A DNA stretch of 64,000 bases, taken from the NCBI GenBank assembly GCA_965223905.1, contig CBDCXV010000011.1, positions 928,001 to 992,000 on the forward strand. Direction: 5' to 3'. This DNA comes from Candidatus Latescibacterota bacterium. Its GTDB lineage: Bacteria; Latescibacterota; UBA2968; UBA8231. This document shows, piece after piece, positions 4,650 to 55,306 of the stretch (the stretch's first letter is position 1; every line of letters starts with the position of its first letter). The translations under genes were made by a program, and so were the position numbers. The notes below the pieces were generated by a model, which did no database searches, was not told where the DNA came from, and worked only from the letters and a program-made list of their open reading frames with translations.

Positions 4650-5756
4650 CTATCCCAAATGCATGGCCTCGCCGCCGAGCAAAAAACTACGGGTGTCGTA
4701 ACGACCAGGACGCTGTACGGGCAGCTGGCCCGATTCCACCATCAGGTCGAGTGGATTGTCGCGGGTCTGCAGGGGCAAATACACTTTCTCGTGACAGCGT
4801 GCCGATTCAAAGACCCCCATCATCATATGCATGGTCCACAACCCGTTTTCCGCCTGGTTGCGGTGGACGCAGCGGCCTTCGATCCAGTCGACTAGTTCCC
4901 GGGCCTGGGCAGCCATAGGTTCGACATTTTCCACTTCCACGTCCTTCCAGCCTTTGGTCTTGACATTGAAATAGCGTATCCAGCCATCGTCGAAGTCAAT
5001 CACGCCCTCAGTACCCTGCACAAAAGCCCACTTTTGCTCGGGCACCAGATCCGTCTGGAAGGTTCCCTGAACCCCACCTGCAAAGCGCAGAAATCCCGCC
5101 ACGCAGTCTTCGCAGCGTACACTGCGCTCGTAGCGGTCGGTCTTGCGCTCCACCTGACCGAAGACCCACTCGACTTCGGGATTGCCCAAGATGTAGCGCA
5201 TGCAGTCCAGCCCATGGCTGGTGGCATTGAGCAAGCCCGTCAGACGGGTATGCGACACCCGCTCCACTTGGCCGACGGCACCCTTGGCAATGAGCTCTTT
5301 GGCCTTGGTCCAGGCCCCCAGGAAGCGGCGCTGGAAGCCAATGGCCAGTTTGACCTGGTTGCGCTGACAGGCGATCACCATTTCCTCGGCCTCTCCCAGG
5401 GAAGTAGCCATGGGCTTTTCGGTGAGAATAGCCTTGGGCTGGCGAGCTGCTGCTGAGATAGTCATCTCTGCATGCAGCGGGTGCCAAGTGCACACACTGA
5501 CGATATCGGGGCGCTCTTTGTCCAGCATCTCCCGGTAGTCCCCGTAGATTTTGGGCACGCCGAATTCTCGGGAAAACCGCTGCCCCCTGGCCTCGTCGGG
5601 ATCGGCCCCGGCCACCAAGTCGATCGCATCCACTCCGCTGTAGCCCCGGGCGTGCGACCCGGCTATGCTGCCGCAGCCGATGATGGCCGCCCGGTAGCGA
5701 GATGGCGACTGCACCGGTCTCTTCTTCCGCTTTGCTTCTGCTTGGGCCTTTGCCAT
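4650..5756 (-). CDS. Gfo/Idh/MocA family oxidoreductase
   Basis: AIIGCGSIA Rossmann motif, TEKPMA, GFQRRF. Confidence 0.92.
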   Translation of the reverse strand: MAKAQAEAKRKKRPVQSPSRYRAAIIGCGSIAGSHARGYSGVDAIDLVAGADPDEARGQRFSREFGVPKIYGDYREMLDKERPDIVSVCTWHPLHAEMTISAAARQPKAILTEKPMATSLGEAEEMVIACQRNQVKLAIGFQRRFLGAWTKAKELIAKGAVGQVERVSHTRLTGLLNATSHGLDCMRYILGNPEVEWVFGQVERKTDRYERSVRCEDCVAGFLRFAGGVQGTFQTDLVPEQKWAFVQGTEGVIDFDDGWIRYFNVKTKGWKDVEVENVEPMAAQARELVDWIEGRCVHRNQAENGLWTMHMMMGVFESARCHEKVYLPLQTRDNPLDLMVESGQLPVQRPGRYDTRSFLLGGEAMHLG

Positions 5757-5795
5757 ATTCCCTCCCTTGCCGCCAAGCACAATTTTGGACCCTTA

Positions 5796-5847
5796 GAGCC
5801 TATAAAAAAATCCGCGTGAGGCCAGGCCGGAATTTTCACATAGGCCC
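5796..5847. mobile_element. 52-bp miniature inverted-repeat element (IS5/IS1031-like ends)
   Basis: Left end GAGCCTATAAAAAAATCC vs reverse complement of right end GGGCCTATGTGAAAATTCC; flanked by TTA on both sides (5793-5795, 5848-5850). Confidence 0.5.
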
Positions 5848-5954
5848 TTAATCATAGCGACAACCGCTACCTCGAATCAAGGATGATTTTGGCGCGACAA
5901 GGCGACTGTCCCCGCTCTCGCTTGACACCAATCTGCCGCAGACCATAACTTATG

Positions 5955-6383
5955 CCTGAATCCGTGATCGTTTATTAGCGAGTGGTCAAGTTTGGTATTT
6001 AGCTGAATCATGCGCTTTTCAACAGGGGATTTGGGTGTCAGCAACTGCCTATTACGGCTGATGCCGCTGTCGATGGCTCTCGACGTCGGTGGGAGTCGCA
6101 AGAGCGGGCATACCGGTGCCCTGAGTGTCATCACGTCGCCGTGAGAAAACTCGGGCTGAGGTCGCTCGGCCAAGGTGATCTCATCCACCCGCGCAGCCAG
6201 GCACGTACGTCCCATCAAGGCCAGCCCGGAATGCGACGTCAGCGTTTCTTCGCCCTGCGTAATTTGAAACGAAACCGGTTTCAATGCTTCACCTCCAAGG
6301 TGAGTCCAAATCCAGCTCTACTATACCCTCGATTCCCCTCGGAAGACAACAAAAAATAAAGGCCTCCACTTCACGGATTCAGG
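5955..6383 (-). mobile_element. Internally deleted IS1380-family element (429 bp)
   Basis: Perfect 13-bp TIR CCTGAATCCGTGA (5955-5967 / 6371-6383); 5-bp TSD TTATG (5950-5954 / 6384-6388); internal ORF start MKPVSFQITQGEETLTSHSGLAL resembles the IS1380 transposase N-terminus. Confidence 0.82.
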
Positions 6384-6385
6384 TT

Positions 6386-8395
6386 ATGGCCAAGTCGCAT
6401 GAAACCCCGTGCATAAACCTGCTGCGCATGCCTGAAAGTCCCGCTCAGACCGCGGCCAGTGGCCTCACCCTGCGCTCCCTGCTCCTCGGGATCGCCGTAG
6501 TGGTGGTCGTGTGTCTGGGAACCCCTTTCGGGAACTGGGTCCTGGGCTCTTCCGAACTCACTTGGTCCTACTTCCCGATCGGCGTGGGCTTTCCCTTTAC
6601 CTGCATCCTCTTTCTCCACATCCTGCTAAAGTCCATAAACCGGAACTGGGCCCTGCGCCCAGCCGAGTTGATCACCATCGTGGTCATGGGACTGGTGGTC
6701 ACCCGGATTCCCAACTTCCTGTGCGGCTATCTCCTCGCCATTCCCACCACCCCCTATTACTTTACATCCGCCGAAAACCAGTGGGGCAAGTACGTCGTAC
6801 CCAACCTGCCCCAGTGGCTCCTGCCCAGCAACGCCGGGCTGGCCATGACTTGGTTTTTCGAAGGTTTGCCCCCGGGGGAACCCGTTCCCTGGAGCACCCT
6901 GCTGGCGGCTTGGATCCCACCCCTGTTTTGGTGGCTGAGTTTTCTGTGGACCCTGTTCTTCGTCACCTTCTGTCTGGTCGTCATCTTGCGCAAGCAGTGG
7001 GTCGAGCGCGAGCGCCTGGACTTTCCTCTCATGGAAGTACCTCACGCCCTGATCGCCGATGCCGACGGCCCTGCGCGCGTGCCGGCCATCCTGCGCACCC
7101 GGCTGTTCTGGATCGGCGCCAGTGTGCCGCTCTTCGTCGTCTTCTGGAACATCGCTGGCTTCTTTTTCCACTACGTACCTCAAATTGCCTGGGACTATCC
7201 GGTGCAAATCGCCCGTGGCTTTCCCTCTCTCAACATCCGGCTCTACTTTCCAGTTATCGGTTTTCTCTACTTTGCCAAGCTGAATGTGTCGTTCAGTCTG
7301 TGGTTCTTCTTCGCGATCTGTCTGGTAGAAGAGGGTATCTTCAACCGCTTTGGCCTCGGCGTTACTGAATCGGATGCCTTTGTCTGGGGCCTGCCCTCCA
7401 CTTCCTGGCAGTCCTGGGGAGCCTTTGTAGTCATGGTCTTGTGGGGGCTGTGGATGGCTCGCAGCCACCTTAGAGACGTTTTCCTCAAGGCCTGGAATCC
7501 CCGCTATCCCGTAGACGAATCCAGGGAACTGCTCTCCTACAGGGTAGCGGCGTATGGGCTGGTGCTGGGCTCGATCTACATGCTGCTGTGGCTACACCGC
7601 GCCGGCATGTCCTTTCCGGTCGCCGGCCTCTTTCTGGCCGGAGTGCTCATCGCCCATCTGGGTATCACCCGTCTGGTAATCCAGGCCGGGGTCTATTATC
7701 TGACCACGCCAGTGGTTTCCCAGGCTATGACCATGGCAACCTTTGGCACCAACGCCATCTCCGCCTCCGGCCTGGCCACCCTGGGGCTGTGCTATTCGTT
7801 TTTCGGCGACGTGCAATCGCTGTTCATGCCCTCTGCAGCCCACGCTGCCAAACTGCATGATGCCATGCGCACGACCCGACGCGGCCTGGGCCTGGCCGTG
7901 CTTCTGGCCGTCTTCCTGGGTTTTATCCTCGCCTTGTCCTTCATCCTCTACAGCGCCTATGACCAAGGTGCTTCCAACTTTAATTCCTGGATCTACCGGG
8001 TTTCGTCCGGGGCCGGAGTACTGGCCTTCGACAATGTCGTAGCCAAGATAAAAAATCCGGTCGGACCCCACCTGCAGAAGCTGGGTTTCTTCAGTGGGGG
8101 AGCCCTGGTTATGGCTGTGCTGACCTTCATGCAGTACCGCTTTCCCTGGTGGCCGCTCCACCCCATCGGTCTGCCCATCGCCGCCGTCTGGATGATCCGC
8201 AACCAAGTCGGCGCAATTTTCTTAGCCTGGGCGGCCAAGAGCGTCATCATGCGCTTTGGCGGTATTGACCTGTACCGACGAGCCTCGCCGTTTTTCATTG
8301 GTCTGATCCTCGGCCATTTCCTCGGCGTGGGCATCTCCTTCATTGTCGACATGATCTTCTTCCCCGGCAACGGCCATGGTATCCTCCACGGCTAA
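6386..8395 (+). CDS. Polytopic membrane protein, DUF6785/DUF6784-type putative peptide transporter (start 6386 or 6428)
   Basis: Many TM helices; LTLRSLLLG, ILRKQWVERERLDFP, RFPWWPLHPIG and PFFIGLILG motifs. Confidence 0.8.
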   Translation: MAKSHETPCINLLRMPESPAQTAASGLTLRSLLLGIAVVVVVCLGTPFGNWVLGSSELTWSYFPIGVGFPFTCILFLHILLKSINRNWALRPAELITIVVMGLVVTRIPNFLCGYLLAIPTTPYYFTSAENQWGKYVVPNLPQWLLPSNAGLAMTWFFEGLPPGEPVPWSTLLAAWIPPLFWWLSFLWTLFFVTFCLVVILRKQWVERERLDFPLMEVPHALIADADGPARVPAILRTRLFWIGASVPLFVVFWNIAGFFFHYVPQIAWDYPVQIARGFPSLNIRLYFPVIGFLYFAKLNVSFSLWFFFAICLVEEGIFNRFGLGVTESDAFVWGLPSTSWQSWGAFVVMVLWGLWMARSHLRDVFLKAWNPRYPVDESRELLSYRVAAYGLVLGSIYMLLWLHRAGMSFPVAGLFLAGVLIAHLGITRLVIQAGVYYLTTPVVSQAMTMATFGTNAISASGLATLGLCYSFFGDVQSLFMPSAAHAAKLHDAMRTTRRGLGLAVLLAVFLGFILALSFILYSAYDQGASNFNSWIYRVSSGAGVLAFDNVVAKIKNPVGPHLQKLGFFSGGALVMAVLTFMQYRFPWWPLHPIGLPIAAVWMIRNQVGAIFLAWAAKSVIMRFGGIDLYRRASPFFIGLILGHFLGVGISFIVDMIFFPGNGHGILHG

Positions 8396-13987: not shown

Positions 13988-15393
13988 GAGCTACCTTCAA
14001 TAGGTGTGGAAAAAGAGAAAAGGCGACCCTAACCTTCCATTATACAGTTCCAACCAAAACCGCCCGGTAGCCTCCGGGCACGGAAGGAGAGAGTCGCCAT
14101 GAGAGAATCTACGCTGGAATCTGTAGCCCCGGCCATGCCCACGTTCGCCACGTTGGAAAACTGGGCCCGATCCTCGATCCAGGATCTGTTGCAACGGGTT
14201 CTGGAGGAGGAGGTGACGGAGTTTCTGGGGCGGACGCGCTACCAGCGACGGTCCGCCGTAGACGGCACCCCCGGCTCCCGCAACGGACACGGCAAACCGC
14301 GACAGGTGTCGTTGATGTCGGGCACCATCGAGGTGAGACGGCCGCGCGTTCGGGGATTGGAAGAGCGCTTTGAGAGTCGTATTCTGCCGCTGTTCATGCG
14401 CCGTACCCACGAGGTGACCCGGATGTTGCCCGAGCTCTACCTGCACGGGCTGTCTCAGGGTGACTTCGAACTGGCTTTGCGGGGGCTTTTGGGCAACGGC
14501 GCTCCCCTGTCGGCTTCGTCCATTGGCCGGCTGCGGGCGCAGTGGGAGGAGGAGCTGGAGACTTGGCGAGAGCGACGTCTCGACGACCGCGAACTGGTGT
14601 ATGCGTGGGCGGATGGCATCTACGTCAAGGCCGGGTTGGAGAAGGACAAGGCGGCCCTGCTGGTCGTCATCGGCGCCATGAGTGATGGCCGGAAAGAGGT
14701 ACTGGCCGTGTGGCCCGGCCACCGCGAGTCGACGGAGTCCTGGCTGAAGGTCCTGCGCGACCTGCGCGATCGGGGTCTGCGGGCCCCGCTGCTGTTGATG
14801 GCCGACGGGGGCCTCCCAATTTGGAGCGCCACCGAACAGGTGTGGCCGCAGGCATCGCACCAGCGCTGCTGGAATCACAAGATCCTCAACGTGCTCGATG
14901 ACCTGCCGAAGCGGGTTCAGGGAAAGGCTCGGGCGTTGCTGACGCAGATCCCTTCGGCCGAGACGCGCCAGGAGGCCGAGAAACGACGTACCACGTTTGC
15001 CCGCCGCTACCGCGACCGGTATCCGCAGGCGGTAGCCACCCTCGAACGCGACTGGGAGCGCATGGTCACCTTCTACGACTTTCCCAAGGAGCACTGGAAA
15101 CACCTGCGCACAACCAATCCGGTCGAGAGCCCCTTTGCTTCGGTACGCTTGAGGACTAATGCCGGAAAACGCTACAAACGCGTCCAGGGAGCGACCGCTC
15201 TGATTTGGCGTGTGTTGATGGTGGCAGAAAAACGCTTTCGAAAACTCAATGCGCCCGAATTACTGCCCCTCGTCTACGCCGGACAACAATACCAGGATGG
15301 GAAACCCATCAAGAACGAAAAGACATCCACCAAGAGAAGGTTGAAGCGGGCCGCCTGATCTCATTTAATTTACACACCTCTTGACGTGACCTC
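13988..15393 (+). mobile_element. IS256-family insertion sequence (1406 bp)
   Basis: Imperfect 25-bp TIRs (GAGCTACCTTCAATAGGTGTGGAAA / GAGGTCACGTCAAGAGGTGTGTAAA) and 8-bp TSD ATCATCCG (13980-13987 / 15394-15401). Confidence 0.93.
14099..15358 (+). CDS. IS256 family transposase
   Basis: RNGHGKPR, LYLHGLS, WADGIY, ADGG, QRCWNHK, LRTTNPVES motifs; intact ORF. Confidence 0.95.
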   Translation: MRESTLESVAPAMPTFATLENWARSSIQDLLQRVLEEEVTEFLGRTRYQRRSAVDGTPGSRNGHGKPRQVSLMSGTIEVRRPRVRGLEERFESRILPLFMRRTHEVTRMLPELYLHGLSQGDFELALRGLLGNGAPLSASSIGRLRAQWEEELETWRERRLDDRELVYAWADGIYVKAGLEKDKAALLVVIGAMSDGRKEVLAVWPGHRESTESWLKVLRDLRDRGLRAPLLLMADGGLPIWSATEQVWPQASHQRCWNHKILNVLDDLPKRVQGKARALLTQIPSAETRQEAEKRRTTFARRYRDRYPQAVATLERDWERMVTFYDFPKEHWKHLRTTNPVESPFASVRLRTNAGKRYKRVQGATALIWRVLMVAEKRFRKLNAPELLPLVYAGQQYQDGKPIKNEKTSTKRRLKRAA

Positions 15394-23984: not shown

Positions 23985-25321
23985 CAAAGCCGCGGGACAG
24001 GCCTCGTCGTCGCCATCGTCCTCGCCTACGGGGCCTCGCGCTTCGAATCGCGCCCGGTGGTCGAGATGACACGCAGCGCGCGGGAGATGGCGAGCGGCGG
24101 ATACGGCGGACACATACCGGGAACGGCGTTGGCAGCCAGGGAGCTTCACGACCTCGCCCGGGCCCTGCGAGACATGTACAGCCAGATCCAGGACCGCGTC
24201 GCCCAGCTCAGCACGGAGAAAACCCGGCTCGAGGCGATTCTAGACAGCGTCTCGGAAGGGATCCTGGTAACCGACCCGGACAATCGCGTCGCCCTCGCCA
24301 ATCCGGCCTTGACGCGTATGTTCGGGCTCGAGAGCTGGCGTCCCGGCATGCCCCTGGTCGAGCTGGTACGCAATACCCGGGTCGAGGATAGCGATCGCCG
24401 AGACCTCGAACTCGGGAAGGGGGACGGCACTCGAAGTCGAGCTCAGCGGCGAAGAGCGCCACATCGACATCAGGGTGGCGCCGGTCGTTTCCGAGCGGCT
24501 CGGCCGGGGTACGGTGGCCGTTTTCTACGACATCACCCGCCAGCGCCGCCTGGAGACCATGCGCAAGGATTTCGTCGCCAACGTCTCGCACGAGCTACGA
24601 ACCCCCCTGACCGCGATCAAGGGCTGCGCCGAGACCCTCGTCGACGGCGCCATCGATGACGATGATGCGGCCGCACGCTTTCTCCAGGTCATAGCCACCC
24701 ATTCCGACCGTCTGACCAACCTGCTGAACGATCTCCTCGACCTCTCACGCCTCGAGTCCGACGAACTCGAAATCGAGGCGGCCCCCTGCAACGTGCGGGC
24801 CCTGGCGGAGTCCTCGATAGAATCCGTTGCCCAGATCGCCGCGCGCAGGGGCATCGCCATCGACGTCTCCGTAGGTGCGGAGATTCGTGCCCTGTGCGAT
24901 CGCAAGCTGATCGAGCAAGCCCTGATAAACCTGATCGAGAATGCGGTGAAGTACTCGGCTGAAAACGGCCGCGTCGAAGTCGGAGCCCGCATCCTGTCCC
25001 GGGCGGAGACCTGGGCCCCTTTCTCGCCGAAAGAAGCTGGAGCGGCGGGGCCTCGCCCCCCTGGCCGACGGCGGCGAAAAGAGGGCGGGGGCCATCCTCC
25101 TCCAGGTCGCCGATACCGGGATCGGCATCCCGTCGGAGGCGGTCACCCGGGTTTTCGAGCGCTTCTACCGCGTCGACAAGGGCCGTTCCCGGGAAATGGG
25201 GGGGACCGGCCTCGGGCTCTCCATCGTCCGCCACGTGGTCGAGGCCCACGGCGAGCGCGTCTTCGTCGACAGCGAGCTGGGCCGCGGGTCGACCTTCGGG
25301 TTCACCCTTCCGGCCGCCTGA
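23985..25321 (+). pseudogene. phoR: PhoR-like sensor histidine kinase (HAMP-PAS-HisKA-HATPase), N-terminally truncated and multiply frameshifted
   Basis: [64 protein letters not shown] in successive frames. Confidence 0.75.
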
Positions 25322-46736: not shown

Positions 46737-48692
46737 TCACTGCCGGTCCTCGAGCCGCTCGAGTTCCTCAGAAACCTCCAGCCAGCGCTGCTCGTGTCCG
46801 GGAAGGTCGGCGGTCAGCTCGGCGTGCCGCCTAAGCCATTCGGCAAAATCCGGATCCTTCGGGCTTTCGGGCAGGCACAACCTGCGGTCGAGCTCGGCGA
46901 GCTCCTCCGTGCACCTTTTCAGCCTCGCCTCCGCGGCCGACACCTCCCTGCGGATCTTCTTCGTGCGGTTCGAGCGCTGCTGCCGCTGCTCCGCCTCGCG
47001 CCGTTTCCTCTCCGCCGTCTTCCTCCCCTTCCCCGCGGCCTTCTTCGGCTCGACGGCCTTCGGAGGCCCACCCTGCTCCCGGGCTTCAATGCGCTCGAGC
47101 CACTCGCTGTAGTTGCCGTGGTAGAGCACCGCTTCGCCCGGTTGGATCTCGAGAATGCAGTCGACGAGAGAGTCGAGGAAGTCGCGGTTGTGCGAAACCA
47201 CCAGCAAGGTCCCCCCGTAGGTCGCCAGCCCGTTCTTGAGGGCGTCGCAAGCTTCGAGATCGAGGTGGTTGGTCGGTTCGTCGAGCAGCAGCATGCCCGG
47301 TCTGGACAACAGGATGCGCGCCAGGCTGACGCGGGCCTTCTCGCCGCCCGACAGCACTTCGATCCGCTTCTCGAGATCGCTGCTGGAGAGCCCGAGGCTG
47401 GCGGCAAGGGAGCGCACCCGTACAGGGGCGTTGCCGAAGCTCTGCTCGTCGAGGTAGTCGAGGGTGACGATCTGCAGGGGCAGCTCCTCCATGCGGTGCT
47501 GGGCGAAAAAGCCGGTGCTGACCTGGTCGCTGCTTCGCAGGCTGCCCGACAACAGGGGCAGCTCTCCGGCGCAGCACTTCAGAAACGTCGACTTGCCGGC
47601 ACCGTTGACGCCGACGATGCCGATCTTCCGGCCCCCTTCGATGAGGCACTGCGGCAGCTCGAAAAGGGGATGCCCCGCGCCGTACCCGAAAACCGCCTTC
47701 TCGAACTCCAGCACGCGGCTGGGCAGGCGCCGCTCCAGCTCCAGGCGAAAGCTGGCCGGGCGCCTTGAGACCACCGGCATCGACTCCCTGAGCTCCTCGA
47801 TCTGCTGCTGGTAGTGGTCGGCGGTCTTGAGGCGGTTCTGCGCCTGGCGGGCTTTCGTCGCCTTGGCGCGAAACCGCCTGGCGAAATCCTCGAGCCGCTC
47901 TACCTCCTTCTGTTTGTTGGCGATCGTCGCTTCCAGCTGGTCTATGCGCTGCTGCTTGAGCGTCTCGTACTGCCTGAGCGACCCGGGCCACAGGGTCAGT
48001 TGAGGCGGCGCGAACTCGAGGATGCTGCGGGCGAGACGCTGAACCAGCCGGCGGTCGTGGCTGATCAGCATGAACGAGTGGCGGTACTGCTCGAGGAACT
48101 CCTCGAACCACTTGACCGAGCGGATGTCGAGGTGGTTGGTCGGCTCGTCGAGGAGCAGCAGATCCGCCTCCTGCAGCAGCAGGCCGGCGAGGTGACAGCG
48201 GATCCGCCAGCCACCGCTGAGCTGCACCGCAGGCTGGCCGAACTGACCGGAACCGAAGCCGAGGCCGGCGAGCAGCTCCCTCGCCGTCTGCTCGACCTGG
48301 TGGCCTCCGAGTATGCTGAACTGGTGCTCGATCTCCAGGTAGCGCTCCACGAGCTTCTCGTTCGGGGATTCGGACAGCTGCCCTTCGATCCGGTTCATCG
48401 CCTCGCGCGCTTCGAACCAGGGGGCGAACTCCCGCAACGCCGCCTCGAGAACCGTGTCTCCCTGGCGGGGCAGCCACTCCTGGCGCAGCTGGGCAACGCG
48501 ATAGTTCTTCGGCGTCCTGATTTCCCCCTCGTCCGGCAGCAGTTCGCCGGCGAGCATGCGGAAAAAGGTCGTCTTGCCGGCCCCGTTCGGGCCGACCACT
48601 CCGATGCGCTCGCCGGGGCCGACGGCGAAGCCGGCGTTCCGGAAAAGTACCTGGTCTCCGAACTGCTTGGCGACGTTGTCTATCGATATCAT
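46737..48692 (-). CDS. ABC-F family ATP-binding protein (YheS/Uup-like)
   Basis: Two ATPase cassettes (GPNGAGKT, LSGGW, LDEPTNHLD twice), no TM domain, C-terminal coiled coil. Confidence 0.93.
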   Translation of the reverse strand: MISIDNVAKQFGDQVLFRNAGFAVGPGERIGVVGPNGAGKTTFFRMLAGELLPDEGEIRTPKNYRVAQLRQEWLPRQGDTVLEAALREFAPWFEAREAMNRIEGQLSESPNEKLVERYLEIEHQFSILGGHQVEQTARELLAGLGFGSGQFGQPAVQLSGGWRIRCHLAGLLLQEADLLLLDEPTNHLDIRSVKWFEEFLEQYRHSFMLISHDRRLVQRLARSILEFAPPQLTLWPGSLRQYETLKQQRIDQLEATIANKQKEVERLEDFARRFRAKATKARQAQNRLKTADHYQQQIEELRESMPVVSRRPASFRLELERRLPSRVLEFEKAVFGYGAGHPLFELPQCLIEGGRKIGIVGVNGAGKSTFLKCCAGELPLLSGSLRSSDQVSTGFFAQHRMEELPLQIVTLDYLDEQSFGNAPVRVRSLAASLGLSSSDLEKRIEVLSGGEKARVSLARILLSRPGMLLLDEPTNHLDLEACDALKNGLATYGGTLLVVSHNRDFLDSLVDCILEIQPGEAVLYHGNYSEWLERIEAREQGGPPKAVEPKKAAGKGRKTAERKRREAEQRQQRSNRTKKIRREVSAAEARLKRCTEELAELDRRLCLPESPKDPDFAEWLRRHAELTADLPGHEQRWLEVSEELERLEDRQ

Positions 48693-48949
48693 CTGGAATC
48701 AGGCGAATTCGCTTATGACTGCAGGGCTTTCCGGCTGCCTTGGCAGGGGCCCCTGCGGCGTCCTCTCAACCGGGTACGGCCGGCCCCGACGCCGGTCCCC
48801 CCACCTAACCCGCAGGGGGCTCCCGGCACGGGCCCGGACAGTCCTCAACCTGGGAAAGGACATGATTTCCGGCGCCGCCGGCTTCCTCATGAAATGCCGC
48901 GGTGCAACGATCGACCCGGATACCCGGCGTCTTCCTCGACAGCCGAACC

Positions 48950-49987
48950 CTAGTCCACCCCAGGGCCCCTCCAGGCCGCCAGCTCCTCGTTGAAGGCGAA
49001 CACCTGCGGCAGGCCTCCCGAGTGCAGGAAGAGGAGCGTCCGATCTCCTGCGAACCCACCCGACCTGATGCCGTCGATCAGCGCCGACATCGACTTCCCG
49101 GTGTAGTTGGGATCGAGGATCACCGCCTCGGTCCGGGCCACGAGGTGGATGGCCTCGAAGGCGGCATCGGTCGGTGCCGCATACGCCGGTCCGGAGAAGC
49201 CGTCGACGATCTCGACGTCTTGCGGGTCGAGGGGAAGCGGCAGCTTCATGAACTCCGCGGCCTGCCTGCACCGTTTCACCATCCCCTCGCGGACTTCGTC
49301 GACGTTGCCGGGGCTGTAGAGGACCATCGAGGCTTTCCAGTCGAGCCCGAGGTTCTTCGCCAGCAGACCCAGTCCCGGCAGGGAGGCGCCGACCAGCCCC
49401 CAGACGTGAATCCGCTGGACACCGTACGCCGCGAGCTGGGACATCAGCTCGAGGCCTGCCTCGACGAAGCCGATGGTCCCGATGATCTGGGGGAACCAGT
49501 CCTCGTTGAGGATGTAGGGTTTCCCGCCCTGGCCCCGCACCCTGGCGGCGATGGCTTCGGCGCAGGCCGAGGAATCCTCCCCCGCGGAAAGGCGGTGGAT
49601 CTCCCCTCCCATCAGCTTGACCAGCAGGAGGTTCCCCTGCAGCGGGCGCTCCGTCTCCCCCACGGATAGGAGGATGTAGCGGATCCCGGCCTTGACGCAT
49701 GCCGCGGCAGCGACCCTGGCGTGGTTCGAGTGGAAGTTGTTTATGCAGATCAGGGTGTCGAAGCCCTGGTTCCTCACGTGCGCCATCTCGAACTCGAAGT
49801 GCCGCGACTTGTTGCCCCCGTAGGCCAACCCGGTGGTATCGTCCCGCTTCACCAGCAGGCGCGGACCGCCGATCCTGCTCCGCAGTCTCTTCCACTCTTC
49901 CAGCGGCGTCGGGATGTGCGACCACCTGATGCGGGGGATTTCCGCCAGGTTTGCCCGTATCTGCTCGGGAGTTGTCGCAGGTGTCAT
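48950..49987 (-). CDS. D-cysteine desulfhydrase/ACC deaminase family PLP enzyme
   Basis: PTPLE, KRDD, GGNKSR, SNHAR, LDPNYTGK, LHSGG. Confidence 0.88.
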   Translation of the reverse strand: MTPATTPEQIRANLAEIPRIRWSHIPTPLEEWKRLRSRIGGPRLLVKRDDTTGLAYGGNKSRHFEFEMAHVRNQGFDTLICINNFHSNHARVAAAACVKAGIRYILLSVGETERPLQGNLLLVKLMGGEIHRLSAGEDSSACAEAIAARVRGQGGKPYILNEDWFPQIIGTIGFVEAGLELMSQLAAYGVQRIHVWGLVGASLPGLGLLAKNLGLDWKASMVLYSPGNVDEVREGMVKRCRQAAEFMKLPLPLDPQDVEIVDGFSGPAYAAPTDAAFEAIHLVARTEAVILDPNYTGKSMSALIDGIRSGGFAGDRTLLFLHSGGLPQVFAFNEELAAWRGPGVD

Positions 49988-50105
49988 GGTGGTGCCTTTC
50001 GATAAAAACGTCAGCTGTCGAGATCAATCCGGAAATCGCGAGTCGACCGGGAGGATTGGGGCCTTCCCGGCTTCCACGTTGCAAGGGGAACCCCGCCCGG
50101 CGTCC

Positions 50106-51092
50106 TCAGGACTCCCCGGCAAAGAGCCCGGCCAGGCGCGCCAGCGGCAGGTTGCCCCCACTCAGCACCCCGGCAACCCTCTTCCCCTGCAACTCCTCCT
50201 GCAGCTTGACCGCGGCGGCCGTAGCCGCGGCCCCGGCCCCCTCCGCCAGCTGCCGGGTGTGCCTCGCCAGCAGGCGGATCGCCGCATTGATCTCCTCGTC
50301 GGTGACGAGCACGAAATCGTCGAGCAGCTCCCACATGAGCTGCATGGTCATCGCAAACGGCACCCGCGTCGCCAGGCCTTCGTGCTCGGTATTCATCGCG
50401 CACTCGACCTCCAGCCGTCCTTTCTTCCAGGCCTCCCAACAGGCAGGTGCCGAGGCGGACTGGACGCCGATGATCCGCGTCCCGGGCCGCTGCTGCTTGA
50501 CGGCCAGGGCGATACCGGTGGCGCCGCTGCCTCCCCCTACCGGGGCGATGATCACCTCGACGTCGGGGAAGGCGTCGGCGATCTCCAGGCCCATGGTGCC
50601 GACTCCTGCGATCAGCAGCGGCTCGTTGCCCGAGTGGACGTAGCGCCGGCCCTCGGCCGCGGCGACCCGCTCGACCTCCCCGCGCGCCTCGTCGAAGTCC
50701 CGCCCGAACAGGCGCACATCCGCGCCGAGGGCGCGCATCGCCTCGATCTTCACCGGGTTGGCGTTCCGCTCCGGGGCGTAGATGATCACCGGGATGCCGA
50801 ACAAGCCGCCGGCAAAGGCGATCGACTGCCCGTGGTTTCCGGTGCTCGCCGTGACCACCCCGAGGCGTTTGACGCCGTCGTCGAGGTTCCCCAGCAGGTT
50901 GACGCCGCCGCGGACCTTGAAGGCCCCCACCGGCTGCACGTTTTCGCACTTGACGTAGTAGTCGAACCCGAGCTGCTGCGACAGGGAGTGGGCCTTGATC
51001 AGCGGAGTCGGCGGCAGGTAGGGGGCGATGAAGCGGCGGGCGGCGACCACATCGTCGCGGGTCGGCAGCTCATGGTCGGGGTACAGTTTCAT
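50106..51092 (-). CDS. Threonine/serine dehydratase (fold-type II PLP)
   Basis: KCENVQPVGAFKVRG, ASTGNHGQ, PVGGGSG, LSGGN. Confidence 0.9.
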   Translation of the reverse strand: MKLYPDHELPTRDDVVAARRFIAPYLPPTPLIKAHSLSQQLGFDYYVKCENVQPVGAFKVRGGVNLLGNLDDGVKRLGVVTASTGNHGQSIAFAGGLFGIPVIIYAPERNANPVKIEAMRALGADVRLFGRDFDEARGEVERVAAAEGRRYVHSGNEPLLIAGVGTMGLEIADAFPDVEVIIAPVGGGSGATGIALAVKQQRPGTRIIGVQSASAPACWEAWKKGRLEVECAMNTEHEGLATRVPFAMTMQLMWELLDDFVLVTDEEINAAIRLLARHTRQLAEGAGAAATAAAVKLQEELQGKRVAGVLSGGNLPLARLAGLFAGES

Positions 51093-51261
51093 CCGGCGCC
51101 CTTCCGCTCTTGTCCGAGCCGGAGACAGGGGTTCGGCATCTGGGGGCCTCTCCGGGGAACCGAGGAAACGGCGAGGATTCCCGACCGACCCCCGGCCGCC
51201 GCTTCCCGCAGGTTGGGCCCGAAAATCCCGGCTGCTCCCGAGGGCCCGGACCAAGTCCCCT

Positions 51262-51993
51262 TCATCGGTTCCTCATGCATTGCTCCGCCGCCTCCAGGAC
51301 GCGGCCGTTGTCGTACGCCCCGAGCAAGCGCCGGCTCCCTTCCGGGTCGGAGGCCGAGGGGCCTGCCGCCTCGATCAGCAGGGGCATCGCCCTGACGACG
51401 TTGTCGACTATGGAGATGCTGGCCAGCTTCGCCGTGCGCGACAGGGGGTTGAGATCGACGGTCACCACCTCCTTGCCGGCGGCGCGCAGCACCTGGCAGC
51501 GGTCGCCATCCTCGAGGGGCACGAAGACCACGTCCGCCCGGTGGATCCCCTCCGGGTGGACGTACCGCCTGTTGGAGTCGATCCCCTCGAGAAAGGTGTC
51601 CGCGGCAGGCAGCAGCACCCGGGTGGCGCCGCTTGCGACCAGCAGCTTTTCGATGGCCCGCTCGCGCTCCTGCGATCTGTGGAACAGGTTGACCTCCAGG
51701 GGGCAGGAGAGGGCCGCGGCGAGCGCCACCAGCCGATCGGCGACAAGGGCCGCGGCGTTGCCGTTGACCGACAGCACCGGCCTCTGCGCGGCCGCCAGCA
51801 TGGCCGCGGCCGCGGCGACCGCCTCCCGGGCGAAATAGTGGGTGCGCTCCCCGAGGAGGTAGTCGAACGCCTCGCCGCGGCCGTGGGCGATCAGCCCGTG
51901 TACCGAGGTCACCCCGCGGTCGACGCCGGCGACGACGGCGTCCCGCAGCCGCAGCGATTCGTAGCGCGGGTGGGTTTCTGGAACGTCGGCCAT
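51262..51993 (-). CDS. 4-phosphopantoate--beta-alanine ligase (archaeal-type phosphopantothenate synthetase, PPS)
   Basis: HPRYESL, GLIAHGRGEAFDYLLGE, PVLSVNGN, EVNLFHR, VPLEDGDR, DLNPLSRT, VDNVVRA signature. Confidence 0.93.
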   Translation of the reverse strand: MADVPETHPRYESLRLRDAVVAGVDRGVTSVHGLIAHGRGEAFDYLLGERTHYFAREAVAAAAAMLAAAQRPVLSVNGNAAALVADRLVALAAALSCPLEVNLFHRSQERERAIEKLLVASGATRVLLPAADTFLEGIDSNRRYVHPEGIHRADVVFVPLEDGDRCQVLRAAGKEVVTVDLNPLSRTAKLASISIVDNVVRAMPLLIEAAGPSASDPEGSRRLLGAYDNGRVLEAAEQCMRNR

Positions 51994-51995
51994 GG

Positions 51996-52835
51996 TCAGT
52001 CCAGCACCCTGGCGGGGGCCAGGGCCAGCGCCGTCTCGGTCGAGCCTGCGAACGGGGCGGTGCTGAAGACGGCGTGCCCGAGCATGATCATCGAGGCAGA
52101 CCCTCCCGAGGCCTCCACCGAAGCGACCGCCTCCCTGACCCGGGGATCGGTCATCAGGCCGCTGTCCCCGGCGAACTGCCTGGAGATGCGCACGCACTCG
52201 GCGACCGCCACCCCCTCCCGGCCGGTCAGCCCGGACAGCTGCCGCAGGGCGGCGTCCGCGGCCTGGTTCACCGAGGCGCGGCGGTCGGGATCGGACAGCA
52301 CCTCCCGGGTGCTTATCGGCCCGAAATACCGGAAATGGATCGGCTCCCCCTCCGCAACCGCCAGGCGCTGCGCCACCAGCGGCGCCCCCGGCCTCAGCTT
52401 GACCAGGCATCCGCCGTGGTACTGGGCGCAGACGTCCCCGAGGCCGGTCAGGTTCTCCACCTCGGCCACGTGGGCGTGCAGTGCCAGCTCTTCGGCGGCC
52501 ATGCCGAGGCCGAGGAGGCGGTCGATGGCGTACGCCGCGCCGAGGGCGGAGGCGCCGCTCAGGCCGAATCCGCAGCTCAGCGGCAGGGCCGACTCGACGG
52601 AGACGTGGAAATCGCGGTCGCTTAGCCGTCTGGTCAGGGTCGCCACCGTCGGGAAGCGGATCTCCTCGCCGTTGAAGGTGACCGCGGTACGGGAGGATTC
52701 CGAAACCATGACCTCGGCCCCCTCGGTAACGGTGAAGCTGAGCCCGAGGGAGTGCATCTTCTCCGGATTGTCGTCGGCGATGATCTTGAAGAGGCCGGAA
52801 ATGCTTCCGGGTGCGAAGGCGGTGGCCGACCTCAT
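51996..52835 (-). CDS. Pantoate kinase (archaeal-type PoK, GHMP superfamily)
   Basis: AFAPGSISGLF, LPLSCGFGLSGASAL, AHVAEVENLTGLGDV, PGAP, ASMIMLG; adjacent to PPS. Confidence 0.9.
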   Translation of the reverse strand: MRSATAFAPGSISGLFKIIADDNPEKMHSLGLSFTVTEGAEVMVSESSRTAVTFNGEEIRFPTVATLTRRLSDRDFHVSVESALPLSCGFGLSGASALGAAYAIDRLLGLGMAAEELALHAHVAEVENLTGLGDVCAQYHGGCLVKLRPGAPLVAQRLAVAEGEPIHFRYFGPISTREVLSDPDRRASVNQAADAALRQLSGLTGREGVAVAECVRISRQFAGDSGLMTDPRVREAVASVEASGGSASMIMLGHAVFSTAPFAGSTETALALAPARVLD

Positions 52836-52916
52836 GAAGGGCGGCCTGCGGGGTTCGCTGTACTGGACGCGGATCGGCTGGGTGTCATTGCGGTTCGCAG
52901 CTGGTCGCCCGGCCGA

Positions 52917-53713
52917 TCAGCTGCCGGCGTTGACGCCGGGACCGCGGCGGTTGGCCTCGAGCGACATCAGGTCGTCGGCAGCGACGTTGCCGATGTTGAC
53001 CTCGGTTCCGTAGCGGTCGATCAGCTCGCACCGGAAGCGATGGACGTCGCTCGCGGTCACCCCGCCGATCCAGGGACCGGGAAGCTCGAACATCACCTTC
53101 TCCAGACCGGGGGAGGCAACGATGTCCTCGACCGCTGCCGATGTCGCGCTGTCGTCCGCCAGCAGCTCGGCCGCCTCCAGCAGGATGAGCCGGGCCCCGC
53201 CTTCGAGGCATATCCTGGCGTTGTCCAGCGGAGGTATGGAGTTTTCGAGCCCTCCTTCCTGCCGACCTCGCCGAGGACCTTCAGGCCGAACCCTTCCCTT
53301 GCCCTGCGGATCGTCGCCTCCTTCCAGGCCGCGGTGGCCGGCAGCAGGTTGTCGGAGACCTCGACCCAACGGTAGCCGGTCTCCGCGACCGCTTCGAAAT
53401 AGCGCTCGAGCTTCCCTTCCGTTTCCGCATACTCGAGGTACTGTCCGCCCGGAAACGGCTCTATGTCCCCGGCGAGATAGGAGTCGATCTTGCCCTGCAG
53501 AAGGGGGCCTGAAAGAAGCCGGGAAACCCCGACCGCCACTTTGGCGAAATCGATACAGGAACCGCCGGCATCCAGCAGGTCCCTCTGCCGGTTCGGTCCC
53601 ATTCCCCAGTCGACGACCATGGTCAGGCCTGCCGGCCGCGGTTTTTGCGAACGCTGCCCCGCCTGCTTTCCGTCCAGTCCCTCGAAACGCTTCGCTCCAT
53701 TGAGCCTATCCAC
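52917..53713 (-). CDS. comA: Phosphosulfolactate synthase (ComA) family; frameshift near 53250
   Basis: KPRxxGLTMVVDWG, IDFAK, FPGG, VEVSD, GEVGRK, FELP, VNIGNV, LEANRRG. Confidence 0.85.
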
Positions 53714-53746
53714 TGAATCGCTTGTCTTTGATGTCGAGAAACTACG

Positions 53747-55306
53747 ATGCGGCAGAAAGCAGATAAAGCTCCATCACCCCTCCGGCGACTCGCCTGTCCG
53801 CTTCTCGCCGGCATGCTGGCTGCCGCGGGACCTGCTGCTTCCCAGCCGCAGCTGACAGCCCACCACGAATACCAGTTCGGCAACCTGCCCGGGTCGGAGC
53901 CCGGCGATCTGCGCACGGTCTACCAGCAGCTGAACTTCGGTTTCGAAACCTCGGGATTCCTCGCCAGCCTGCGCAGCGAGGCCTTCCGCTCCAGCGCCGG
54001 CGGGCGCGACTACTTCCACCTCGCCCAGAGATCCCTCTCCTACCGGCAGGGAGGTTTCGAGGCGACCGCGGGGACCTACTACACCCTCGTCGGCAGCGGA
54101 CTGCTGCTGCACGCCTTCGAGCTCCCCGGAGTCGTCACCGAAAACCGCGTCTCCCGGAGGCGCTACCAGATCATGCGCGACCTCGACGGATTCCAGGTCC
54201 GCTACCGCCGGGGCGACGTCGACCTGACGTTTCTGACCGGCCGGTCGGTCGACAGCGAGCTCGCCCCTGGCCAGAAGGGACCGGAGCGCCGCCAAGGCCG
54301 CGTTTCCGGGGGGGCCTTCAGCGCCCGTCCCGTGGCCGGCCTCGAGGTCGGGATGGGAGTCCTGGACTTCGACGGCGAAGAGCGCGGGGCCACCACCCAT
54401 GCCCGGGTCCGCTTCGGACCGCTGCTGAAAGCGCTCGGGCTGCCGGACTGGTACGGCGATCTGTACGGCGAGTACGCCCGCATCGATCCGGCCCTCGACA
54501 GCTGGTTCTCCCTCGACCGCGAGCACGCGCGGGCCCTCTACCTCTCCAGCACCTTCACCGGGGGGACCTGGGGGTTGAGCCTCGAATTCAAGGACTACGA
54601 CGACTTCAACTTTCCCGCCATCAACAACCCGCCGACACTGATCCGGGAGCACGAGGCATTCCTCCTGAACCGGCAGACACACACCCTGCTCCCCGACGAC
54701 GAAACCGGGTTTCAGGCGGAGCTGACCTGGGCCCTGCCGCGCCAGGTCGGGCTGATCGCCGCCTGGAACCTCGCCACCCGCCGGGGTTCCCGTCCCGGGG
54801 AGGAGGAGAAGTCGTTGAGCGAGTACTTCCTGCAGCTCGATTCCCCGGTGGGGGAGGAGCTGTACTGGCAGGTCTTCCTCGATTTCGCGCGCAGCCGCAT
54901 TCTCCAGAACGAGCGGCGGGTGACCGCGGGCACCCGGTGGGACTGGTCCGCGGGCTCGCGCTACGCCGTCGCCGCCGACCTGCAGTTCCAGGACGTCGAC
55001 CGCCGCTTCGGCAGCAGGAAGTTTCCCTACGAGAACCTGCTGGCCGCCGCCGAGGTCAGCCGCTTTCCGGCCTGGACCTGGTCGCTGCAGTTGCAGCGGT
55101 CAAACGACCCGCTGGAGGCCGGGGCCTCGCAGTCGGGCGCGACTTACTGGTGGACCCTGGGGGCGAGCTTGCTGTTCCGCGACGCCCACACCGCCACCCT
55201 GTTCGCCGGCAAACGGCGCACCGGTCTCGCCTGCACCGGCGGGACCTGCTACGAAGTGCTGGGGTTCGAAGGGATGGAGATTCGCCTTACGAGCAAAGTG
55301 CTCTGA
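53747..55306 (+). CDS. DUF6029-like outer-membrane beta-barrel protein
   Basis: Signal peptide; GTYYTLVGSGLLL, LEFKDY, NNPPTL; C-terminal GKRRTGLACTGGTCYEV.GFEG. Confidence 0.7.
   Translation: MRQKADKAPSPLRRLACPLLAGMLAAAGPAASQPQLTAHHEYQFGNLPGSEPGDLRTVYQQLNFGFETSGFLASLRSEAFRSSAGGRDYFHLAQRSLSYRQGGFEATAGTYYTLVGSGLLLHAFELPGVVTENRVSRRRYQIMRDLDGFQVRYRRGDVDLTFLTGRSVDSELAPGQKGPERRQGRVSGGAFSARPVAGLEVGMGVLDFDGEERGATTHARVRFGPLLKALGLPDWYGDLYGEYARIDPALDSWFSLDREHARALYLSSTFTGGTWGLSLEFKDYDDFNFPAINNPPTLIREHEAFLLNRQTHTLLPDDETGFQAELTWALPRQVGLIAAWNLATRRGSRPGEEEKSLSEYFLQLDSPVGEELYWQVFLDFARSRILQNERRVTAGTRWDWSAGSRYAVAADLQFQDVDRRFGSRKFPYENLLAAAEVSRFPAWTWSLQLQRSNDPLEAGASQSGATYWWTLGASLLFRDAHTATLFAGKRRTGLACTGGTCYEVLGFEGMEIRLTSKVL

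Follow-up and report, generated by a model that had tools for sequence, protein, structure and literature searches.

The locus analysed here raises the question of whether a bacterium outside the Poribacteria makes 4'-phosphopantothenate by the archaeal route, via pantoate kinase (PoK) and phosphopantothenate synthetase (PPS), and whether this route has taken the place of PanC and pantothenate kinase (PanK). Both routes have the same net reaction (pantoate + beta-alanine + 2 ATP to 4'-phosphopantothenate), although the enzymes have unrelated folds and the order of the steps is reversed in PoK/PPS. Until now, Bacteria and Archaea have been told apart by this order of steps, the Poribacteria counting as a curiosity: in the literature searched, a swap to PoK/PPS in bacteria is reported for that phylum only (Thomes & Lescure 2020). 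In the available portions of this study (PMC7883664), the sponge-symbiotic Entoporibacteria carry PoK/PPS, lack PanC, PanK and the classical ketopantoate reductase and keep CoaBC, CoaD and CoaE, whilst the Pelagiporibacteria use PanC/CoaX; there, PoK/PPS is taken as a Poribacteria-specific trait and the two routes are said not to have been described so far in a single organism. A first-pass annotation of the locus, made from the sequence, had named this precedent, and the same portions bear it out.

Within the window, by which we mean the whole stretch of 64,000 nucleotides that was analysed, the pair is arranged as follows:

51996..52835, reverse strand: PoK, an intact open reading frame of 279 aa encoding a GHMP-family kinase
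51994..51995, reverse strand: the PoK-PPS spacer of 2 nt ('cc'), between the PoK stop codon TGA (51998-51996) and the PPS start codon ATG (51993-51991)
51262..51993, reverse strand: PPS (4-phosphopantoate--beta-alanine ligase), intact, 243 aa

The first-pass annotation had described two adjacent, intact genes 2 bp apart that encode PoK and PPS, and both the reading frames and the best-matching families and structures agree with this description. In case of PoK, GHMP_kinases_N (PF00288, Pfam) scored 46 bits against a cut-off of 22.3, the glycine/serine-rich phosphate-binding motif PLSCGFGLSGAS was found in the translation, and the two top NCBIfam models are both pantoate kinase models (NF040725, 156 bits, E 8e-46; NF041122, 79 bits), with other GHMP kinases reaching at most 32 bits (homoserine kinase 32 bits, mevalonate kinase 25 bits). 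The NF040725 score lies below the equivalog cut-off of 380; since none of the four matching archaeal control genomes passes this cut-off either, it marks a narrow lineage and not the enzyme family. The best PDB chain is the pantoate kinase of T. kodakarensis (6jbc, residues 6-259, E 5e-17, 65 bits), with mevalonate kinases at E of about 3e-3. Residues S104, E134, D143 and T186 of the T. kodakarensis enzyme are identical in the window protein (S93, E125, D134 and T176) and R155 is exchanged for lysine (K146); these five we take to be the catalytic and pantoate-binding residues. Across 34 bacterial rows the corresponding columns hold S in 33 and E, D, K and T in all 34, compared to S 19, E 18, D 13, R 10 / K 9 and T 19 in 19 archaeal rows. 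The assignment as a pantoate kinase is functionally clear, with ATP-dependent phosphorylation of pantoate as the predicted reaction.

Whilst PoK is only distantly similar to its T. kodakarensis counterpart, PPS is alike from end to end: the solved T. kodakarensis structure (3wdk) aligns to residues 1-235 (E 1.9e-63), and the blocks HGRGEAFDY, SVNGN, VPLEDGDR, DLNPLSR and IVDN are intact in comparison to it. The open frame extends over 51262-52410 on the reverse strand, and the family match starts at the ATG at 51993, giving the 243-aa protein. With 209 bits for PF02006 and 314 bits for NF010324, the protein passed both thresholds (26.4 and 227, respectively), the archaeal equivalog NF041123 scored 288 bits and hence slightly under its cut-off of 300, and 62 residues of the window protein recur in 95% or more of the 101 PPS rows aligned. 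Its assignment as a 4-phosphopantoate--beta-alanine ligase is equally clear, the predicted substrate being 4-phosphopantoate. An antisense frame of 661 aa (51028-53013), chosen by crude GC3-based ORF picking, was rejected as a high-GC artefact without family support.

The host genome is bacterial and 7.9 Mb in size (estimated at 93.6% completeness and 5.1% contamination), and the window lies inside a 2.2-Mb contig that also bears a bacterial ribosomal operon, CoaBC and CoaE. By SecY, its closest relatives with a name (80-86% identity) carry the labels Latescibacteria/Latescibacterota or Gemmatimonadetes, and on this basis the sponge-associated host is probably Latescibacterota-like and not one of the Poribacteria. 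In a profile search of this genome, PPS matched once, PanB (two copies), CoaBC, CoaD and CoaE were present, and PanC (PF02569), CoaX, the type III pantothenate kinase (PF03309), and type I pantothenate kinase (TIGR00554) were not found; the control for type II (PF03630) matched no genome, and the absence of PanK refers to types I and III. Neither a PanE-type ketopantoate reductase (ApbA_C) nor PanD was found in the host genome, so that its supply of pantoate and beta-alanine is incomplete; matches to the Pyridoxal_deC family are the sole candidates for a beta-alanine source. Given the estimated completeness and contamination, these absences are not absolute. Nevertheless, with PanC and PanK types I and III missing and PanB, CoaBC, CoaD and CoaE in place, no route to 4'-phosphopantothenate other than PoK/PPS is visible. 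In the proposed pathway, pantoate would arise via PanB plus a ketopantoate reductase, PoK would convert pantoate to 4-phosphopantoate using ATP, PPS would form 4'-phosphopantothenate from 4-phosphopantoate and beta-alanine, and CoaBC, CoaD and CoaE, all ordinary bacterial enzymes, would complete coenzyme A, with free pantothenate at no stage an intermediate. In contrast to archaea, CoaD and CoaE are bacterial-type enzymes and not archaeal PPAT/DPCK, and unlike T. kodakarensis the host is bacterial and mesophilic, its PoK/PPS genes being high in GC. The host resembles the Entoporibacteria, as described in the available portions of PMC7883664, in possessing both enzyme families and bacterial CoaBC/CoaD/CoaE and in lacking PanC and PanK, with no PanE-type ketopantoate reductase found. 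We consider it highly probable that the pair represents a working PoK and PPS, that it is the host's sole route to phosphopantothenate, that it has replaced PanC/CoaX and that it belongs to a bacterial clade which arose a single time from archaea and then moved among bacterial phyla, several of which are sponge-associated.

The same two enzymes could act in the bacterial order, the PF02006 enzyme serving as a pantothenate synthetase and the GHMP kinase then phosphorylating pantothenate. The curated name 'phosphopantothenate/pantothenate synthetase' permits either activity and sequence alone does not fix substrate order; furthermore, three Acidobacteriota-labelled genomes without PoK carry PPS along with PanB as well as a typical CoaX, which raises the possibility that some members of PF02006 supply a pantothenate kinase. 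However, the T. kodakarensis enzyme that aligns with the window PPS was deposited as 4-phosphopantoate--beta-alanine ligase, the closest characterised relative of the kinase is a pantoate kinase, and the two genes are as tightly paired as in archaea. The T. kodakarensis enzymes are also said to prefer pantoate and 4-phosphopantoate biochemically. On this evidence the bacterial order appears unlikely for the window pair.

That PoK/PPS acts in place of the usual enzymes is borne out by its distribution in the host phylum. Among 168 genomes of this phylum, PPS was found in 33, PanC in 125 and CoaX in 129, and in none of the 168 did PPS and PanC occur together. No PPS-bearing genus has PanC or CoaX; G031, a Latescibacterota-like genome, carries PPS plus a weak, divergent match to the CoaX family. 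PanC and CoaX, the route of the host's other family and phylum members, are found without PPS in genera g2, g11, g12 and g16 of the same family. Within one family of the Latescibacterota-like phylum, part of the members have very probably exchanged PanC and the type III pantothenate kinase for PoK-PPS. One subgroup with PoK/PPS and the remainder with PanC/CoaX is also the division between Ento- and Pelagiporibacteria, as far as the available portions of PMC7883664 describe it. In 19 of 20 same-phylum loci PoK is the gene immediately upstream of PPS, making the pair a tightly linked cassette, and this arrangement recurs, among the matches listed, in 14 of 46 loci with bacterial labels and in several from archaea.

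Of the genes around the cassette, the first three listed here suggest a second alternative, in which PoK and PPS would have a different task:

52917..53713, reverse strand: ComA-like phosphosulfolactate synthase gene upstream of PoK, in two frames with a 1-nt deletion near 53250
50106..51092, reverse strand: PLP-dependent threonine/serine-dehydratase-like gene downstream of PPS (PF00291, 268 bits)
48950..49987, reverse strand: PLP enzyme like CuyA (cysteate sulfo-lyase) or XcbE (NF052482, 231 bits; NF052537, 200 bits; both under their cut-offs of 450 each)
53747..55306, forward strand: DUF6029 protein, divergent (PF19494, 59 bits)

Such a task could be tied to the sulfonate genes, e.g. the making of a sulfonated analogue of pantoate or pantothenate, with CoA precursors scavenged from the sponge. 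Within about 3 kb on the upstream side of PoK, ComA occurs in 9 of the 20 same-phylum loci and in the named record L034, a homologue of the downstream dehydratase-like gene (best NCBIfam match 270 bits, under every equivalog cut-off) is present in 11 of the 20, and in the genus of the window the CuyA-like gene comes next, being syntenic, among the same-phylum loci, in the 2 same-genus loci only. Against this, ComA linkage is limited to the host's family, L034 standing alone among 80 loci in the matches listed, and the window ComA is frameshifted while PoK and PPS are intact: frame 53093-53713 holds PF02679 positions 2-137 and frame 52917-53369 holds positions 149-239, the site reading GGG in the window versus GGGG in the two loci of the same genus, whose gene occupies a single frame. 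An assembly error at this site was rejected, four independent RNA-library contigs crossing 53250 gapless with the same base count, and a coupling of ComA to PoK-PPS in function was likewise rejected. Scavenged pantothenate would moreover be useless to a cell without PanK, the strict exclusion between PPS and PanC over the 168 genomes fits a function in CoA synthesis, and in other bacteria PPS occurs with PanB, PanE and a PLP decarboxylase, i.e. in a pantothenate context. A sulfonate-related role is hence very improbable.

The neighbours are bacterial in kind, comprising an ABC-F protein, the DUF6029 protein (the outer-membrane barrel of the first-pass annotation), SBP-type ABC transporter genes and FG-GAP/ASPIC proteins, and in GC (0.70-0.71) and GC3 (0.91) PoK and PPS are similar to the flanking genes (GC 0.65-0.70, GC3 0.78-0.91), their codon usage being that of the host; bacterial surroundings, a lack of GC contrast and ameliorated genes had all been anticipated from the sequence, and so these proved to be. 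That the pair is an artefact, a piece of archaeal DNA wrongly assembled or binned with a bacterial genome, is extremely improbable: despite the contamination estimated for the bin, the pair is interior to the 2.2-Mb contig with host-like GC3, its nearest homologues are bacterial, and the arrangement is repeated in identical gene order in two same-genus genomes, one a single 7.05-Mb contig, with PoK and PPS at 87-93% protein identity.

The preferred reading, a PoK-PPS cassette of archaeal origin that supplies the host's 4'-phosphopantothenate, was placed in a wider context by quick SH-aLRT trees of both proteins. The window pair sits inside an all-bacterial clade in each of them (SH-aLRT 87 for PPS, 64 rows; 98 for PoK, 34 rows), its members labelled Poribacteria, Gammaproteobacteria, Verrucomicrobiota, Chloroflexota and others, and an archaeal group labelled DPANN and Methanosarcinales is the sister of this clade. 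As in both trees the pair shares the clade with the Poribacteria rows, the inter-domain transfer looks old and shared. Of the points raised in the first-pass annotation, a bacterial host without PanC and PanK and outside the Poribacteria, on a contig neither archaeal nor chimeric, is what we found; the ancient transfer between domains stood as regards its age, whilst a separate event into the host lineage did not, the trees showing a single shared bacterial clade; and novelty by phylum holds only for the printed literature searched, although databases already name the homologues: NCBI and JGI carry 'pantoate kinase [Candidatus Latescibacterota bacterium]' entries and '4-phosphopantoate--beta-alanine ligase' in several bacterial phyla. 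The bacterial clade looks to have a single archaeal origin, a direction of transfer that we infer from the trees; its later spread was probably between bacteria, and for the host lineage, acquisition of the pair from other bacteria or inheritance by descent is the most likely course. Compared with Poribacteria-labelled loci, the window proteins show 58-62% (PPS) and 52-56% (PoK) identity among the matches listed, with the PPS of the Poribacteria-labelled locus L029 reaching 65% over a shorter segment. The host differs from the Poribacteria in its phylum, being Latescibacterota-like, and in the local context of ComA, PLP enzymes and DUF6029.

A broad scan of contigs for PPS loci, with none of the window's near relatives among the matches listed, placed PPS under at least eight further bacterial labels beyond the Poribacteria. 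Together with three Acidobacteriota-labelled genomes that hold PPS alongside PanC and CoaX, this departs from the picture given in the available portions of PMC7883664. PoK was present and PanC and CoaX were absent in 22 of 27 other PPS-bearing bacterial genomes, whose completeness is unstated, and in G171, labelled Methylomirabilia, PoK and PPS stand beside a PanC broken into three pieces. The swap to PoK/PPS is apparently common to many bacterial lineages: whole sub-clades of several bacterial phyla live on PoK/PPS and have lost PanC/CoaX. The window represents a second phylum with this replacement and one instance of a wider multi-phylum pattern, which is unpublished in the literature searched and is of more interest than the window case itself. 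We tentatively suggest, as a possibility that we hold to be less probable than its negation, that PoK-PPS is a mobile two-gene bacterial cassette, obtained once from archaea near the DPANN- and Methanosarcinales-labelled group, that repeatedly displaced PanC and CoaX across unrelated phyla. These would comprise the Latescibacterota-like phylum, Poribacteria, Gammaproteobacteria, Verrucomicrobiota, Dehalococcoidia and others, in many cases as sponge symbionts; G171, G031 and three Acidobacteriota-labelled genomes would be surviving transitional states. The advantage would lie in the absence of free pantothenate, because of which no vitamin would leak to host or neighbours and pantothenate antimetabolites would lack a target.

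For metagenome-assembled genomes from PoK/PPS sub-clades, pathway-based calls, be it 'pantothenate auxotroph' or 'CoA pathway incomplete', would therefore be wrong, and the view that sponge symbionts provide vitamin B5 has to be re-examined, since PoK/PPS yields no free pantothenate. The transitional genomes offer a means of studying the swap of an essential two-step pathway.

With respect to the window itself, a promoter and terminator scan of 48600-54000 gave no site of either kind, and an Rfam scan of the whole window gave no match and hence no rRNA. RNA-library contigs, which cover PoK, PPS and the PLP gene in part and are in themselves no proof of transcription, matched parts of PoK/PPS in three of four sponge-metagenome libraries from one study with 0-5 differences per 161-220 nt, PoK in libraries X10, X15 and X21 and PPS in X10 only. 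Finally, a DUF6029 homologue (49% identity over 464 aa) adjoins PoK-PPS in L022, a locus labelled Latescibacterota, and further homologues lie beside the pair in L087, L088 and L106.

The archaeal-type route to CoA is represented in the window by two adjacent genes:

52835–51996, reverse strand: pantoate kinase (PoK), ATG-initiated ORF of 279 aa
51993–51262, reverse strand: phosphopantothenate synthetase (PPS), ATG start, 243 aa

Two nucleotides, "cc", separate the PoK stop codon TGA (51998–51996) from the PPS ATG at 51993. A longer listed PPS frame (to 52410) only overlaps PoK, and because the NCBIfam family match begins at ATG 51993 (model position 2 is residue 141 of the long frame) we take this ATG as the PPS start. 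PoK exhibits the N-terminal GHMP-kinase domain (Pfam search), its top two NCBIfam families are both pantoate kinase (156 and 79 bits, all other GHMP kinase families at or below 32 bits) and its best match among solved structures is the T. kodakarensis pantoate kinase (6jbc, E 5e-17), followed by mevalonate kinases (E ~3e-3). The 156 bits fall below the curated equivalog cut-off of NF040725 (380 bits): as all four archaeal control genomes matching this model also remained below 380, the cut-off is uninformative for the window PoK. Pipelines using NF040725 will leave most PoKs unnamed. Residues S93, E125, D134, K146 and T176 stand at aligned positions of the T. kodakarensis enzyme that we take to be catalytic or pantoate-binding; of the 34 bacterial rows 33–34 keep them, as do most of the 19 archaeal PoK rows, position 146 being R in 10 and K in 9 of the latter. 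In case of PPS, scores of 209 bits against PF02006 and 314 bits against the subfamily model NF010324 (cut-off 227) were obtained, residues 1–235 align with the solved T. kodakarensis PPS (3wdk, E 1.9e-63) and, in this alignment, the blocks HGRGEAFDY, SVNGN, VPLEDGDR, DLNPLSR and IVDN are all intact. Every detail of the first-pass annotation of adjacent, intact genes with a 2-nt spacer was thus borne out by ORFs, junction sequence and family and structure matches, and its reported lack of GC contrast was reproduced (GC3 of 0.91 for PoK and PPS, 0.78–0.91 for their neighbours). One further frame covers the locus:

51028–53013, forward strand: 661-aa shadow frame, antisense over PPS, PoK and part of the neighbouring ComA gene, GC3 0.82

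With no family support, this frame was rejected as a gene: it is the usual shadow of high-GC genes, and it caught out a simple picker that selects genes by GC3.

The window spans positions 928001–992000 of a 2.2-Mb contig, in a 7.92-Mb assembly of 11 contigs and 64% GC that is estimated as 93.6% complete with 5.1% contamination. On this contig, CoaBC, CoaE and a ribosomal-protein operon of bacterial type are also encoded. The SecY encoded in this operon has relatives at 80–86% identity that submitters label either "Candidatus Latescibacteria/Latescibacterota bacterium" or "Gemmatimonadetes/Gemmatimonadaceae bacterium"; according to PMC10581226, GTDB-Tk moves some MAGs gathered as Gemmatimonadota to Latescibacterota and neighbouring phyla. 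In both the PoK and the PPS tree, a Latescibacterota-labelled locus (L022) clusters closely with rows from the window's family; it also has the DUF6029 neighbour. From these relationships we conclude that the host is a Latescibacterota-like bacterium and no poribacterium, a different phylum being the condition that the first-pass annotation had set for novelty. In two genomes of the same genus, one assembled as a single 7.05-Mb contig, the genes are arranged as in the window (DUF6029, then ComA, PoK, PPS, PLP dehydratase-like, CuyA-like and ABC-F), with protein identities of 81–97% from DUF6029 to ABC-F, which excludes a chimeric locus; with the ribosomal operon on the same contig, the host is bacterial, and the archaeal or chimeric contig that the first-pass annotation had named as its possible undoing was not found. 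Contigs from RNA libraries (four "sponge metagenome" runs of one study) match parts of the PoK/PPS locus with 0–5 differences per 161–441 nt: since they are near-identical to the locus, the organism or a near-identical strain inhabits sponges.

Family searches of the window's genome (93.6% complete) revealed no PanC, no type III (CoaX) and no type I pantothenate kinase, the absence that had been proposed as a check, whilst two copies of PanB as well as CoaBC, CoaD and a bacterial CoaE are present. By gene content, PoK and PPS fill exactly the gap between PanB and the CoaBC/CoaD/CoaE complement. Neither PanE (ApbA_C) nor PanD was found in these family searches; Pyridoxal_deC-family matches are present and might be a source of beta-alanine. 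PMC7883664 describes Poribacteria as likewise without a classical ketopantoate reductase and proposes IlvC as substitute.

Among 168 genomes of the host's phylum, PPS was found in 33, PanC in 125 and CoaX (E <= 1e-10) in 129; PPS and PanC never occur together and 10 genomes have neither, all given as plain counts over related, non-independent genomes. PPS is present in 31 of the 75 other genomes of the window's family. Its PPS genera (g1, g3–g10, g13–g15, g17 and g18) show no PanC and no CoaX; genera g2, g11, g12 and g16 carry PanC in 40 and CoaX in all of 43 genomes, with no PPS. This division mirrors the Ento-/Pelagiporibacteria split of Poribacteria, as given by Thomes & Lescure (PMC7883664). 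Of 20 loci taken from the 32 other PPS holders of the phylum, 19 have PoK immediately upstream of PPS. The distribution of PPS against PanC and CoaX is the strongest argument that the pair performs the CoA job, and we consider it highly probable that the window genes encode a functional PoK and PPS that act in CoA synthesis. Outside the window's family, PPS occurs in a single genome of the phylum, G031; a family search found no PanC there, and its locus (L101, contig C45) differs in content:

5154–5927 and 5953–6720, both reverse strand: PPS and, directly following it, a divergent gene of the type III pantothenate kinase family (63 bits)

No PoK was found within this 12.5-kb locus, and the kinase-family gene may be a non-orthologous pantoate kinase, or PPS may be used in a PS-like manner.

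The nearest named PPS homologues are bacterial, with a "Gemmatimonadetes bacterium" at 86% followed by Planctomycetota, Gammaproteobacteria and Poribacteria at 62–66%. A scan of species-representative genomes returned at least 80 PPS loci, of which at least 46 are bacterial and at least 34 archaeal by label.

Bacterial-labelled PPS loci among the matches listed
Poribacteria: 21
Chloroflexota/Dehalococcoidia: 8
Pseudomonadota: 4 (one with a doubtful Klebsiella label)
Verrucomicrobiota: 3
Acidobacteriota: 3
uncultured bacterium: 2
Latescibacterota, Gemmatimonadaceae, Methylomirabilia, Cloacimonadota, Spirochaetota: 1 each

In the PPS tree (quick IQ-TREE, SH-aLRT support only, 101 rows) all bacteria but three form one clade of 64 rows (support 87), with a Nanoarchaeia row and then a Methanosarcinales/Woesearchaeota/Nanoarchaeota-labelled group as sisters (joint support 98) and the other Euryarchaeota and TACK rows outside. 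The PoK tree (53 rows) places all 34 bacterial rows in one clade (support 98), sister to the same labelled group (joining branch length 1.52, support 100). Inside the bacterial clade, well-supported branches force the host phylum's rows into at least four places per tree, Gammaproteobacteria rows are nested among them, and L091 joins Poribacteria in the PPS tree. For the window's genus, the PoK tree gives a place with the rest of its family (support 92), the PPS tree a weak grouping with Gammaproteobacteria and Verrucomicrobiota (support 82). We read this as probably one old archaeal-to-bacterial transfer of the pair followed by exchange among bacteria, the direction being taken from nesting alone, in trees that are midpoint-rooted and built on a biased sample; the window's copy would have been inherited within its genus. 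The ancient inter-domain transfer of the first-pass annotation would hold for that single old event, but the window genes themselves sit in an all-bacterial clade with later bacterial exchange. The three exceptions (G031 and two loci with pantothenate-type operons) fall among TACK archaea and look like separate acquisitions, with long branches for L101 and L075:

L059, 60–3716, forward strand: PPS-PanE-PanB-PLP decarboxylase (Cloacimonadota-labelled)
L075, 260–3977, forward strand: GHMP kinase-PPS-PanB-PLP decarboxylase (Spirochaete-labelled)

Of greater interest than the window pair itself is the wider pattern over many lineages. PanC, CoaX and PoK were searched for in 27 genomes out of the at least 46 bacterial-labelled loci, and in 22 of these genomes, which are of unreported completeness, PoK was found but neither PanC nor CoaX.

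PoK genomes without PanC and CoaX, by label
Dehalococcoidia/Chloroflexi: 6
Poribacteria: 5
Gammaproteobacteria: 3
Verrucomicrobia: 3
Latescibacterota, Cloacimonadota, Spirochaete: 1 each
unlabelled: 2

Three Acidobacteriota/Blastocatellia-labelled genomes (G182–G184; loci L043, L047 and L048) carry PPS, an intact PanC and a typical CoaX with no PoK, in L048 in the order PanB-PPS-CoaX (5117–7666, forward strand). According to PMC7883664, no organism had been described with both routes. A Methylomirabilia-labelled genome (G171, locus L018) combines adjacent PoK-PPS and intact CoaX with a broken PanC:

contig C84, 3898–4564, reverse strand: three frame-broken PanC pieces (model positions 2–83, 105–146 and 209–267)

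The first piece is in another frame than the remaining two and parts are missing: this looks like a decaying gene caught mid-replacement. A MAG labelled Klebsiella pneumoniae (L050), a label that looks doubtful, has a PPS 59% identical to that of the window and CoaX, with no PoK or PanC found in the genome. In many lineages the all-bacterial cassette clade appears to have taken the place of PanC/CoaX, and some genomes still show transitional states.

A search of titles and abstracts in freely accessible journals returned only PMC7883664 for bacterial PoK/PPS; this is the Poribacteria exception named in the first-pass annotation. Novelty through a different phylum stands for the literature so covered, but databases already annotate such homologues: NCBI names a "pantoate kinase [Candidatus Latescibacterota bacterium]" and a "4-phosphopantoate--beta-alanine ligase" in Planctomycetota and Poribacteria MAGs, and the JGI name is likewise "pantoate kinase". 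Among other close homologues the names "sugar kinase", "GHMP kinase" and "hypothetical protein" persist, a mixture that fits an NF040725 cut-off too high for most PoKs. The window pair is a phylum-level addition, real and functionally clear, to a kind described in 2020.

Upstream of PoK lies a phosphosulfolactate synthase (ComA) gene, split by a 1-nt deletion near 53250:

52917–53713, reverse strand: ComA-like gene, frameshifted (G run GGG, GGGG in both congeners, where the gene is in one frame)

Four RNA-library contigs cross this site without gap and agree with the window in base count, which makes the frameshift a true feature of the population; the gene is either a recent pseudogene or read through. 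A T run near 53688 shows a second 1-nt difference; here the additional base of the congeners is also present in one RNA contig. Of 20 family loci, 9 include ComA and 11 the PLP dehydratase-like gene; among the at least 80 loci from elsewhere, ComA is near PoK-PPS only in L034. We attribute this linkage to inherited synteny rather than functional coupling.

DUF6785/DUF6784-family proteins adjoin PPS in three scanned Poribacteria-labelled loci without adjacent PoK (two copies flanking PPS in L007 and L021, one downstream in L009), an association that may be chance. The window has its own copy ~43 kb from the pair:

6284–8395, forward strand: DUF6785/DUF6784 protein, 703 aa

The first 24 kb (1–24000) have a GC content of 54–65%, mostly 58–60%, and contain a Mutator-family transposase gene, sugar ABC transporter genes and FG-GAP/ASPIC proteins, with one feature recorded alongside the GC contrast at 14099–15358 (forward strand); positions 24001–64000 are mostly at 65–71%, with 61–63% in the last 4 kb.
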